Of a stretch of DNA of 64,000 bases, positions 44,772-64,000 are shown piece after piece. Under the pieces are notes generated by a model. That model was given only the letters and a program-made list of their open reading frames with translations. It made no database searches and was not told the DNA's origin. Every line of letters begins with the position of its first letter. Positions within the stretch are counted from its first letter, which is position 1. Location: positions 1,760,001 to 1,824,000 of the forward strand of contig CAVYRF010000001.1 in the NCBI GenBank assembly GCA_963770895.1, read 5' to 3'. The stretch is from an uncultured Acidobacteriota bacterium (GTDB lineage: Bacteria; Acidobacteriota; Thermoanaerobaculia; Multivoradales; UBA5704). Both the position numbers and the translations under genes were made by a program.

Positions 44772-44900
44772 ATGATGGCGCCGCCACGCCTTGAGCCGCG
44801 GCCGCCTGCTGAAATCGAACGGGTAGCATCTTCCTTCCTTGCGGCCCGAGCGCAGGCCACCATGCGAGGATTCCCTTTGCTCTTTCGACAGGAGGTTCCG

Positions 44901-45446
44901 ATGTCCGAATTTAGCAATCCCGTGGGCGAGAGCGGTTCTGCCGCGGACGCCTATGTGGCGGCCCTTCTTGCGCTGGTCGGAGACCGAGATCCCCTGGAGG
45001 TACAGGAGGAGCTGCCGCAGGTCCTGCACCAGCTCACGGCCGGCCTTGACGACGCCGCGCTCCGCCAGCCCGAGAAACCCGGCAAATGGTCGGTGATGGC
45101 GGTGGTGCAGCACCTGGCGGACAGCGAGCTGGTCAGCGGCTACCGCATCCGCATGATCCTCTCCGAGCCGGCACCCAGGATCCAAGCCTACGATCAGGAT
45201 CTGTGGGCGCGCGAGCTTCGCTATGACCGTGCCGGCCTGCCAGAGGCCCTTGAGGTCATCCGCGTCCTGAGGGGCGCCAACCTCCGCCTGCTACGGGCGC
45301 AAGACGATGCCCGCCTCGACCGCTTCGGACTGCACGCCGAGCGCGGCCAGGAGACCCTGCGCCGCCTGGTGCGCATGATCGCCGGCCACGACCTTGCCCA
45401 CCGCCGCCAGATCCAGCGCATCCGCGACGCCATCGGTGCTGCCTGA
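44901..45446 (+). CDS. DinB-family protein
   Basis: AGGAGG RBS; GKWSVMAVVQHLADSE, IQAYDQDLWA, GHDLAHRRQI. Confidence 0.9.
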   Translation: MSEFSNPVGESGSAADAYVAALLALVGDRDPLEVQEELPQVLHQLTAGLDDAALRQPEKPGKWSVMAVVQHLADSELVSGYRIRMILSEPAPRIQAYDQDLWARELRYDRAGLPEALEVIRVLRGANLRLLRAQDDARLDRFGLHAERGQETLRRLVRMIAGHDLAHRRQIQRIRDAIGAA

Positions 45447-45538
45447 GGTCACGGTGACCGCGCGCCCCGCGCGCCGCCCGCGGCTGCCGTGAGGCGTGGG
45501 GGCAGGCTACACTGTGGCCGGCTTGGCACGGAGGAGCG

Positions 45539-46522
45539 ATGATCGACCTGGGAGCGGATATTGCGCGGTATGGGGTGGGGTTCGTGTTCCTGAACGTCTT
45601 CGCCACGCAGGCGGGCCTGCCGCTGCCGGCCGTACCGGCGATGATGGTGGCCGGCGGGCTGGCCGCCGAGGGCAAGCTGTCACCCTGGAGCGTGCTGGGG
45701 GCGGCGATCGGCGCGGCCGTCCTTGCCGATTCGCTGTGGTTCAACCTTGGGCGCTGGCGCGGGCGGCGGGTGCTGAAGGTGGTCTGCAAGGTCGCCGTGT
45801 CGCCCGACTCCTGCGTGCAGCGGATGGAGTCGCTGTACCAGCGCTTCGGCTTGCGCTCGCTGCTGTTCTGCAAGTTCGTGCCCGGCTTTGCGACCGTGGC
45901 GCCGAGCCTGGGCGGGGCGCTCAAGGCGCCGCGCTGGCGCTTCCAGCTCTACGATGCGGCGGGCTGCGCCCTGTGGGCGGTGAGCATCATCGGCACCGGC
46001 GCACTCTTCCACTCGGCGCTCGACAAGGCGCTGGCGGTGCTCGAGCGGATGGGTGCGCTCGCCCTGCTGCTGACGGCTGCCGCCGCGGCCGCGTACGTGG
46101 TGTGGCGGTTCGTCCTGCGGCGGCGTTTCATCCGCGACCTGCGGATGGCGCGCATCTCGGTGGAGGATCTGACCGCCGCGCTCGCCGGCTCCACGCCGCC
46201 GCTGATCGTCGACGTGCGCACCCGCGGCGCCGTGTGGCTCGACTCGCGCCGCATACCGGGAGCCTTGCGGATGTCCTTCGATGAGGTCGAGGAGCGTCTG
46301 GCCGAGCTGCCGCGCGGCCGCGACCTGATCCTCTACTGTACCTGACCGAGCGAAGCCTCGTCGGCCCGTGTGGCCTTCAAGCTAAAGCAGTTGGGTTTCA
46401 CCCGCATCCGCCCGCTGTTCGGCGGTCTGGAAGCCTGGATCGACGCCGGCATGCCGGTCGACGCCGACGAAGCCGCGGGCACCGCCGCCTGGAATGGCGA
46501 GCCTGCCGCCGACGGCCGTTGA
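45539..46522 (+). CDS. DedA/VTT-rhodanese fusion, probable selenoprotein (in-frame UGA at 46343-46345)
   Basis: DedA motifs (GLPLPA, KFVPG); rhodanese LYCT-[UGA]-PSEASSARVA...IRPLFGGLEAW continues in frame for 58 codons to TGA 46520-46522. Confidence 0.82.
46346..46378 (+). promoter_or_regulatory. Candidate bacterial SECIS hairpin
   Basis: GGCC-CGTGT-GGCC stem-loop with G at loop position 2, loop starting 21 nt after the UGA; extendable by GAA/TTC pairing. Confidence 0.45.
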
Positions 46523-46548: not shown

Positions 46549-47358
46549 TCAGGGCCGCGTCGCCACGAAGAGCGTCCCCCAGTCCCGAATTGCGATGCCC
46601 TCGGGGCCCTTCCGCGCCTCGAACGCGGCGGCCAGGTCGAGGCGCAGGGCCTCGCGCAGCTCCTCGGGGACGGCTTTGGAGTGGTTGCCGAAGGCGCTCG
46701 ACTCGATGAACGCGACCACGTCCGCTCCCGTAGCGTGATGCCGGGAGCGCGCCGCGACGTGCAGCTCGGCGAGCACGAGGCCGCTTTCGACCACCATCGA
46801 GATCACGCGCGTGGTGGTGTAGTCCCGGCTCAGGGCGCCGAGGCCCGACCGGTCCACCCGCTCCGCGTAGGGCGGCCGTGCGAGCACGGAGCCGAGGACC
46901 GCGGGCACGGTCCCCGCGCCGCTCAGCTCGCCCGGAATCGTGGTCACCCCCAGGCGACCGCCGGGGCGCAGGACGCGGCGGATCTCGGCGAGCGCCCGCG
47001 GTTTGTCGGAGACCCAGTGAAAGACCGCCGACATGCTCACGGCGTCGAAGCTCTCGGCGGCGAAGGCGCCCAGGTCCTCGGCCTGACCCACCGCAAAGCT
47101 GATGCCGCCGGCACGGGCGTTCGCAATGGCGATGCGCTCGGCGACCGGGTCGATGCCGACGACGCTGCCCGTGGGACTCACGCGCTCGGCGATCCAGTGA
47201 GCGAGCCGGCCCGTGCCGCAGCCCACGTCGAGGACGCGATCGCCCGCCTTGAGGTTCAGGTGCTCGACGAGGCGCTTGCCGTTTTCGAACTGAAAGTCGC
47301 TGATGCGGTCGTAGGTTTCGGCGAGGTGCGAGGTGTCGTCTGTGAAAGAGGTTGTCAT
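46549..47358 (-). CDS. Class I SAM-dependent methyltransferase
   Basis: VLDVGCGTG, SFDAV, FHWV, RVLRPGG; GGAG RBS before ATG 47358. Confidence 0.92.
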   Translation of the reverse strand: MTTSFTDDTSHLAETYDRISDFQFENGKRLVEHLNLKAGDRVLDVGCGTGRLAHWIAERVSPTGSVVGIDPVAERIAIANARAGGISFAVGQAEDLGAFAAESFDAVSMSAVFHWVSDKPRALAEIRRVLRPGGRLGVTTIPGELSGAGTVPAVLGSVLARPPYAERVDRSGLGALSRDYTTTRVISMVVESGLVLAELHVAARSRHHATGADVVAFIESSAFGNHSKAVPEELREALRLDLAAAFEARKGPEGIAIRDWGTLFVATRP

Positions 47359-47675
47359 CGGTAGCTCCAGGCCGAAGTGTACCCTCCCGGCACCCTGCGT
47401 CGCAATCCTGAGGCTTTTCCTGCCACCTGACAATCACCGCATGGTCGGTGCATTGCAAGCAAGGTCGCATCGATTGCCAAAAATGACGGTTGTCGCCAAA
47501 GAAGCGCCGCGTTTCGATCTATTCGTATTGGTACATTTACACTTGCATCCGGTAGCGCGAAGGTTCCAACTCCGTGATCGACAAGGCACCCCCGGCAGAC
47601 AGCAGCTCCGCACCGCCGGCCCATCCGGCAGCCGGCGCCGCCGGTTCCAGGCGGGTTGCCGGGGAGGACCGGGAG

Positions 47676-64000
<16,325 letters not shown>

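Follow-up and report, generated by a model that had tools for sequence, protein, structure and literature searches.

The window analysed here is a stretch of 64,000 nucleotides from the genome of an uncultured Acidobacteriota bacterium (GTDB lineage Thermoanaerobaculia, Multivoradales, UBA5704; NCBI GenBank assembly GCA_963770895.1, contig CAVYRF010000001.1, positions 1,760,001 to 1,824,000 of the forward strand). On its forward strand, at 45539..46522, lies a gene for a DedA-rhodanese fusion protein that contains an in-frame TGA and very probably encodes a selenoprotein. The first open reading frame (ORF; 45539-46345) starts at an ATG at 45539, just downstream of a likely ribosome-binding site, GGAGGAG (45530..45536, forward strand), and ends in ...RGRDLILYCT followed by TGA at 46343..46345. 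Past this TGA the frame reads PSEASSARVAFKLKQLGFTRIRPLFGGLEAWIDAG... and remains open to a second TGA at 46520..46522, which we read as the true stop codon. The complete frame comprises 328 codons including both TGA, that is, 327 residues plus the stop when the first TGA, codon 269, is translated as selenocysteine (Sec, U). A convergent methyltransferase ORF ends at 46549, and the gap between it and the second TGA is 26 bp. In an earlier note on this DNA, made from the letters and a list of ORFs, it was pointed out that the ORF halts within a domain at LYCT while the frame continues up to 26 bp from the convergent gene; both statements were confirmed from the sequence. The Pfam match to the rhodanese domain straddles the TGA, and thus a stop at this codon would split the domain in two. 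The tail past about residue 310 is not conserved in the alignment of homologues, and in the structure model described below the predicted local distance difference test score (pLDDT) is lower than 50 from residue 314.

The in-frame TGA recurs in related genomes. When the read-through protein was used as the query against the whole genomes of 60 relatives, the full-length matches closer than about 45% identity each contained one in-frame TGA, and a second set of matches, including a copy in the same genome as the window (contig 2:121470-122378), had no in-frame stop. In the window, as in each of the 18 relatives' loci that cover the site, the TGA is part of the motif LYC[TA]U-P, and conserved rhodanese sequence comes after it; a further locus (L027, genome G007) ends at a contig end before the site and is outside these 18. 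In a phylum sample of 251 Acidobacteriota genomes, with matches counted at E <= 1e-40, we found 47 matches in 44 genomes: 30 with TGA, 16 without a stop, and one with TAA. Among the fetched phylum loci of the TGA type, TGA occupies the same codon in 26 of 27. The motif pattern failed to locate the site in L080 (genome G094) and in L123, and an extra Sec gene from genome G046 reads LLCTU. Altogether, an in-frame TGA within [LF][YFL]C[TA]U was found in 47 distinct orthologues across the Acidobacteriota, down to 34% identity, and recurrence at one codon in 47 orthologous genes is far beyond chance. The 34 codons on the 3' side of the TGA are free of stops in all of these 47 Sec genes, and the per-site differences in this region are 0.316, 0.283, and 0.536 at codon positions 1, 2, and 3, respectively. 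Such a concentration of differences at the third codon position is characteristic of translated sequence. Separately, a DedA-rhodanese match at G161:C6:6711-7664 has an in-frame TAA, not TGA, in a genome with SelA, and may be a broken copy.

At the column occupied by Sec in the window protein, Cys is found in all 50 full-length homologues that were aligned with it (42-47% identical), and Y266, C267, C269, and P270 are invariant among the homologues of this 51-row alignment. The consensus of the 50 homologues, LYCTCPNEASAA, agrees with the pattern YCxCPxE.S.A that the earlier note had given for DedA-rhodanese homologues. The copy on contig 2 of the same genome (L049) is a Cys paralogue that is 47% identical to the window protein, contains LYCTCP, and reads LYCTCPDEASAARVA. 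The codon at the site is TGC or TGT in 13 phylum loci and in nine same-genus paralogues. Thus, the search for Cys/UGA pairs among homologues, which had been suggested as a check, gave a strict pair at this column. Within the genus, a copy without a stop is present in all nine other genomes, and the TGA copy is present as one full-length match in eight of the nine; in G007 the TGA copy lies in two contig fragments, and in G002 the best match is free of stops. In the protein collection, the 44 nearest clusters (57-99% identity) are 267-269 amino acids long, save one fragment of 191 amino acids, and 267-269 amino acids is the length of the product cut at the TGA. Where a source name is given among these clusters, it is only 'membrane protein DedA', and full-length proteins (312-363 amino acids) start at 49% identity or lower. 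The expectation that standard annotation truncates the gene is therefore borne out by 43 of the 44 nearest clusters, a statement founded on cluster lengths and a few source names.

For 75 distinct fused genes, of which 48 are of the Sec and 27 of the Cys form, a rapid maximum-likelihood tree was built (LG+G4 model; support by the Shimodaira-Hasegawa-like approximate likelihood ratio test, SH-aLRT, only). The tree requires at least three changes between Sec and Cys. The Cys paralogues of the genus of the window nest within a clade dominated by Sec genes, and the window protein itself falls in a clade of ten Sec genes with 100% SH-aLRT support. Since the tree is midpoint-rooted and its genes were sampled by their similarity to a Sec query, no direction of change is claimed.

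A hairpin lies shortly downstream of the TGA, as the earlier note had proposed. In the window, the core of this putative selenocysteine insertion sequence (SECIS) is at 46363..46375 on the forward strand, with the stem strands GGCC/GGCC at 46363-46366 and 46372-46375 and the loop CGUGU at 46367-46371, and the loop starts 21 nt after the UGA. None of the 45 distinct Sec genes aligned departs from the codons GCC CGK GYG GCN, which form a GCC/GGC stem and a fourth pair around the five-base loop CGKGY. The full hairpin signature was found in 40 of the 45 Sec genes vs none of 28 Cys genes, the latter including at least one pattern hit outside the gene (L021) that was kept in the count. Pair 21-33, which joins two third-codon positions, is C-G in 20 sequences, G-C in 11, G-U in nine, U-A in one, and unpaired in four; such a pattern cannot come from protein constraint. 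The covariation score is 0.190 vs 0.090 +/- 0.015 in shuffles, none of 500 of which scored as high. Furthermore, all 45 Sec genes encode the Arg of the loop by CGU or CGG, whereas seven of the nine same-genus Cys paralogues use CGC for it, although the peptide encoded by these nine, AARVAR, is the same. Judged from this comparison of genes, a SECIS-type hairpin is under selection at synonymous sites.

The bacterial SECIS model, as outlined in a selenoprotein review (PMC13188914), has an apical loop of 3-9 nt and an upper stem of at least 4 bp at 16-37 nt from the UGA, with G in the first two loop positions followed by G or U (Fig. 2 legend of that review) and a free energy of -7.5 kcal/mol or lower. 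The window hairpin agrees with the geometry of this model, with a 5-nt loop, a 4-bp stem, G at loop position 2 followed by U, and a spacing of 21 nt. It is part of the minimum-energy fold in contexts of 42 nt and 48 nt, with pair probabilities of 0.71-0.87; the 42-nt fold has -11.0 kcal/mol and includes a second hairpin on the 5' side. The hairpin folds of most orthologues range from -10 to -17 kcal/mol. The same hairpin was found in 15 of 16 fetched loci of genes for stand-alone rhodaneses with a CxU motif ([YF]C[TA]U) from relatives, and in one of these (L121) a U-A pair replaces the otherwise invariant C-G. A longer helix of seven pairs in one register was considered and rejected: it fits some clades only, other clades use a bulged register, and the lower-stem pairs 18-36, 19-35, and 20-34 are unpaired in 23, 33, and 29 of the 45 sequences, respectively. 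The hairpin of the earlier note is thus present just after the UGA, fits the published model in its geometry, and is conserved with covariation.

The genome contains the genes for Sec synthesis and insertion that the earlier note had suggested looking for. SelA was found with 365.6 bits, SelB with 286.4 bits (319.8 bits with in-frame neighbours), a tRNA-Sec with the anticodon tca on contig 2, and SelD over its cut-off; selA, selB, selC, and selD are all present, with selD split over two frames in the assembly. The genome also encodes a Sec-type alpha subunit of formate dehydrogenase at contig 2:580279-583354 (L064/L065), with Sec in ...ENQARIUHSATVP. Since long ORFs of this genome end in TGA more often than in any other stop (2185 of 3443), the codon is not reassigned genome-wide. 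In the phylum sample, SelA was found in 199 of the 251 genomes. It is present in all 30 genomes with the TGA form, or 29 of 29 without the unpublished genome G083, and in one of the 13 genomes with the stop-free form only. As a side observation on selD, the gene in this genome (contig 2:1275592-1276514, L010/L011) reads ...TGGCAAKVGP, with Cys, and one in-frame TGA is found in selD of nine of nine same-genus relatives and three of five genomes of the same order, with GGUAAK in L124-L126.

The protein consists of two domains. The DedA/VTT membrane domain (residues 30-155; 45626..46003) matches PF09335 with 43.5 bits against a cut-off of 33.9, and the rhodanese domain (residues 209-302; 46163..46444), which spans the TGA, matches PF00581 with 44.2 bits against a cut-off of 22.2, as well as solved structures in profile and fold searches; both lie on the forward strand, as do the motifs that follow. 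A Lys/Arg-rich loop of the DedA domain contains the C83-x8-C92 motif CKVAVSPDSC (45785..45814), in which C83, P89, and C92 do not vary in any of the 51 aligned sequences; the C-x8-C pair is present in all 85 fused genes read from loci. The invariant Cys267 (codon TGT, 46337..46339) occupies the canonical catalytic position of rhodaneses, because profile comparison with solved structures places Y266-C267 on the catalytic YC of 6mxv and 3nhv, and Sec is thus located two residues past the canonical catalytic Cys. The earlier note had placed the UGA at the active-site CxC position. This holds in that Sec is the second residue of a C-x-U pair, but the classical catalytic Cys, C267, is not replaced.

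An AlphaFold2 model, made with the 51-row alignment, has a mean pLDDT of 87.0 and a predicted template modelling score of 0.70. Its predicted helices span residues 4-203, and a long helix (residues 158-203) would lead into the alpha/beta rhodanese fold. In the model, C267 ends a strand (residues 263-267); T268, U269, P270, and S271 form a short loop, and a helix (residues 272-284) follows. The active-site loop accordingly reads C267-T-U269-P and is shorter in the model than the active-site loop of classical rhodaneses, which has six residues. Foldseek matched single-domain rhodaneses (Alr3790, TVG0868615, YgaP, and others) with a template modelling score (TM-score) of up to 0.80, normalised to the target, and among the matches listed there was no solved structure matching the DedA part. 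Hydropathy analysis showed ten Lys/Arg and two Asp/Glu in the loop of residues 68-112 and six Lys/Arg in the linker of residues 192-215; from these charges, the positive-inside rule predicts a cytoplasmic location for the loop and for the rhodanese domain.

The recurrent TGA, the Cys/UGA pair, the hairpin, and the Sec machinery together support the suggestion of the earlier note that a UGA at the CxC position marks a probable selenoprotein. We consider it very probable that the gene is intact and that the UGA at codon 269 is read as Sec to give the full-length DedA-rhodanese product. Several observations weigh against this conclusion. Sec in this protein is a prediction from gene and genome comparison. 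The selD gene is split in the assembly at a run of six C, and the contig that carries a restored selD frame is a single metagenome contig with a depth of 2.8. All 12 of the SelA-negative genomes in which only the Cys form occurs come from a single family, and the co-occurrence signal is therefore clustered and does not represent 12 independent events; other genera of this family have SelA and the TGA form. The window hairpin is a weak, minimal form of 4 bp with -6.7 kcal/mol in a 30-nt fold, which is above the limit of -7.5 kcal/mol. It is displaced from the 60-nt minimum-energy fold (pair probability 0.06), and over the 60 nt that follow the UGA the predicted stability does not exceed that of shuffled sequences (z = -0.07). 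A control in which the partners were slid by +3 had a higher covariation score, 0.252 vs 0.190, yet it pairs 46% of cells vs 71%, and three apical pairs never or nearly never vary and are thus uninformative on structure. The best NCBIfam hit of the window protein, NF041203, was scored with 74.4 bits (70 in the genome search) vs a cut-off of 115. Furthermore, no neighbouring gene is conserved, so the context gives no functional hint, and in particular no resistance or redox partner is conserved nearby.

Were the TGA a true stop, a nonsense mutation, or a sequencing error, the product would be a DedA protein of 268 residues with a dead rhodanese stub, as the public gene calls of 267-269 amino acids for 43 of the 44 nearest clusters would have it and as could be expected from the main stop codon of the genome. 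But the same TGA in 47 orthologues down to 34% identity, the bias of the changes after it to codon position 3 with no stops, the split that it would make in a Pfam domain, and the conserved hairpin leave this explanation barely credible. The UGA might also be read through with a residue other than Sec, either Cys via thiophosphate on tRNA-Sec or Trp or Cys by near-cognate tRNAs, and Cys does work at this position in many homologues. The TGA form is confined, however, to genomes with SelA (30 of 30 in the sample), the Cys form dominates where SelA was not found, and selection at synonymous sites has kept a SECIS-type hairpin; we regard such decoding as very improbable. A similarly small chance is given to the case of a selenoprotein gene by descent in an organism whose Sec synthesis is impaired by a true frameshift in selD, in which the product would be truncated and the Cys paralogue on contig 2 would substitute for it. 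The six-C break in selD, the family match of formate dehydrogenase, likewise split over two frames (the break lies near 582726-582749, where there is no obvious homopolymer), the undivided frames of the three other genes checked (rpoB, secA, and gyrA), and the existence of the paralogue would be in line with such a loss. On the other hand, a soil-metagenome contig 98.6% alike over 277 bases has one extra C in the selD run, which restores the frame, selA, selB, and tRNA-Sec are intact, and the frame on the 3' side of the TGA is undamaged; the selD break is probably an assembly slip, although the evidence for this is weak.

If the UGA is read as Sec by the established pathway of bacteria, SelB with Sec-tRNA(Sec) would bind the hairpin, the loop of which begins 21 nt from the UGA, and deliver Sec at codon 269, and the ribosome would then make the 327-residue protein: a DedA/VTT membrane domain, the long helix, and a rhodanese domain placed, by prediction, in the cytoplasm. 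C267 would be at the position of the persulfide-carrying Cys, and U269 in the short loop at the N-terminus of helix 272-284. The two residues may act together as a selenenylsulfide/persulfide relay, which would take over or reduce a sulfur or selenium species on the inner side of the membrane, with C83-x8-C92 as a second relay station or substrate site. Such a relay function, suggested by the anatomy of the protein, is our tentative working mechanism and is less likely than not to be correct; the membrane-linked sulfur/selenium transferase of the earlier note would likewise be a candidate function. A role of the C-x-U domain that we consider nearly as probable is that of a redox switch or reductase regulating the DedA transporter, or of a detoxifier of oxyanions such as chromate, tellurite, or arsenate, as has been proposed for other rhodanese-like proteins, and not of a transferase. 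In its favour, the modelled active-site loop is shorter than the classical one, and the second-best NCBIfam hit of the window protein is the chromate-resistance rhodanese ChrE, though with 38 bits this is far below the cut-off of 120; against it, no resistance or redox partner gene accompanies the locus in relatives. CxU and CxC pairs also appear as typical redox motifs in the selenoprotein catalogue, according to the table passages of two selenoprotein reviews (PMC13188914, PMC9312934).

A more far-reaching idea, which we think quite unlikely to be correct as a whole, is that the fusion by itself makes up a membrane station through which chalcogens are trafficked, with a redox-coupled transport role for DedA. 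The divergent DedA domain would deliver a sulfur or selenium species (selenite, thiosulfate, or polysulfide) to the inner membrane face, and the C-x8-C motif would pass the species to the C-x-U loop, where it would be carried as protein-bound selenosulfide or perselenide. A genetic link between a DedA protein and selenite uptake was reportedly described by Ledgham et al. in 2005, and Ogasawara et al. are said to have proposed in 2001 that selenium-substituted rhodanese is a selenium delivery protein; the station idea would fit both.

The genes around the fusion differ between relatives. In the window it is flanked by a gene for a DinB_2 family protein (44900-45446, forward strand) and by the convergent gene for a class I S-adenosylmethionine methyltransferase (46549-47433, reverse strand), and a BNR/sortilin-like protein is also encoded among its neighbours. 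By tblastn, none of these three was found beside the gene in 33 related loci. Clustering of the flanking ORFs gave no neighbour family common beyond a few closely related or duplicate loci. Elsewhere in the window, the reverse strand contains an open frame of 3025 amino acids (48693-57770) with no Pfam match at E <= 1e-5; in DNA with 71% G+C, this frame may represent either a genuine giant gene or a mere shadow frame.

If the gene is decoded as we propose, a selenoprotein is present in dozens of soil Acidobacteriota (30 of 251 genomes in the sample) and passes for a truncated DedA protein in the output of gene callers, and the selenoproteome counts for this abundant soil phylum are too low. 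Two poorly understood families, the DedA membrane proteins and the CxU rhodaneses, would be combined in one polypeptide, whose four invariant Cys/Sec residues are clear targets for mutagenesis. The Sec and Cys paralogue pairs in one genus, the three or more switches between the two forms, and the Cys form where SelA was not found would make these proteins a convenient natural system in which to study the contribution of selenium, relative to sulfur, to a sulfurtransferase fold. Further members could be sought with a simple pattern, namely the shared hairpin GCC CGK GYG GC at 21 nt after the UGA.

Among known selenoproteins, CxU is listed as the motif of rhodanese-like selenoprotein 'form 3', or COG0607 form 2, in the passages available from two reviews (PMC13188914, PMC9312934). 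The corresponding NCBIfam model is the best hit mentioned above, NF041203 (rhodanese_LYCAU), which shares the C-x-U loop motif with the window protein (LYCTU). The model describes a single domain of 126 positions and matches residues 201-308 of the 327 residues of the window protein, to which a DedA domain is added at the N-terminus. Membership of the window protein in this family was rejected on score, and the protein is also not a single-domain one. The stand-alone CxU rhodaneses of Acidobacteriota are likewise below the cut-off of NF041203, with 68-91 bits in 15 of 15 (L108-L122), and the NCBI model would probably not name these forms either. Several of these stand-alone proteins have a signal-peptide-like or membrane stretch at their start, in contrast to the fused domain, for which a cytoplasmic location is predicted.

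The window protein has the same architecture as the Cys-type DedA-rhodanese fusions, with Sec in place of their Cys, and the 50 full-length Cys homologues share both Y-C-x-C-P and C-x8-C with it; the source name of one of them is 'DedA family protein/thiosulfate sulfurtransferase GlpE'. PA1209 of Pseudomonas aeruginosa, which was itself compared by description, is an example of such fusions of DedA (COG0586) and rhodanese, with PF09335 at the N-terminus and PF00581 at the C-terminus, in the accounts given in PMC10127716 and PMC12893004. A tie of these fusions to undecaprenyl phosphate is called unclear by the authors in the relevant passage of PMC10127716.

The VTT domain is common to the window protein and the canonical DedA proteins (NF008102), which are proposed undecaprenyl-phosphate flippases. 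A canonical DedA paralogue in the same genome aligns with the fused family over 155 columns with an hhalign probability of 98.6. It scores 248 bits with NF008102, whereas the window protein scores 36.3 bits, the cut-off being 236. Canonical members keep certain charged residues, namely an acidic pair in the first re-entrant region and two Arg in R-F-x-P-x-x-R. In the alignment, the fused family has a gap opposite the acidic motif PGD of the paralogue, and RFVPIVRT of the paralogue is matched by KFVPGFAT in the window protein; the C-x8-C loop is inserted in the fused family and missing from the paralogue. In the second re-entrant helix of DedA, two Arg are essential and are likely phosphate binders, as stated in a passage of PMC10127716, and we infer that RFVPIVRT and PGD map to the E. 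coli residues named there. Because two charged positions of the canonical paralogue are lost, the fused DedA module is, as far as its sequence indicates, probably not a standard undecaprenyl-phosphate flippase.

E. coli YgaP is likewise a rhodanese tethered to the inner membrane, and its rhodanese domain is among the structural matches (5hbl, 5hbo, and 2mrm), although the sequence match is weak (E = 0.0079). In YgaP, the rhodanese domain comes first and is followed by two C-terminal helices. It differs from the window protein in having no DedA domain and no Sec. No CxU rhodanese-DedA fusion was found in the main-text passages of the two selenoprotein reviews (PMC13188914, PMC9312934), neither of which mentions DedA, and no literature combining rhodanese, selenoprotein, and DedA was found. 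Measured against these sources, the window protein is a known CxU rhodanese type of selenoprotein in an undescribed fusion with a divergent DedA domain.

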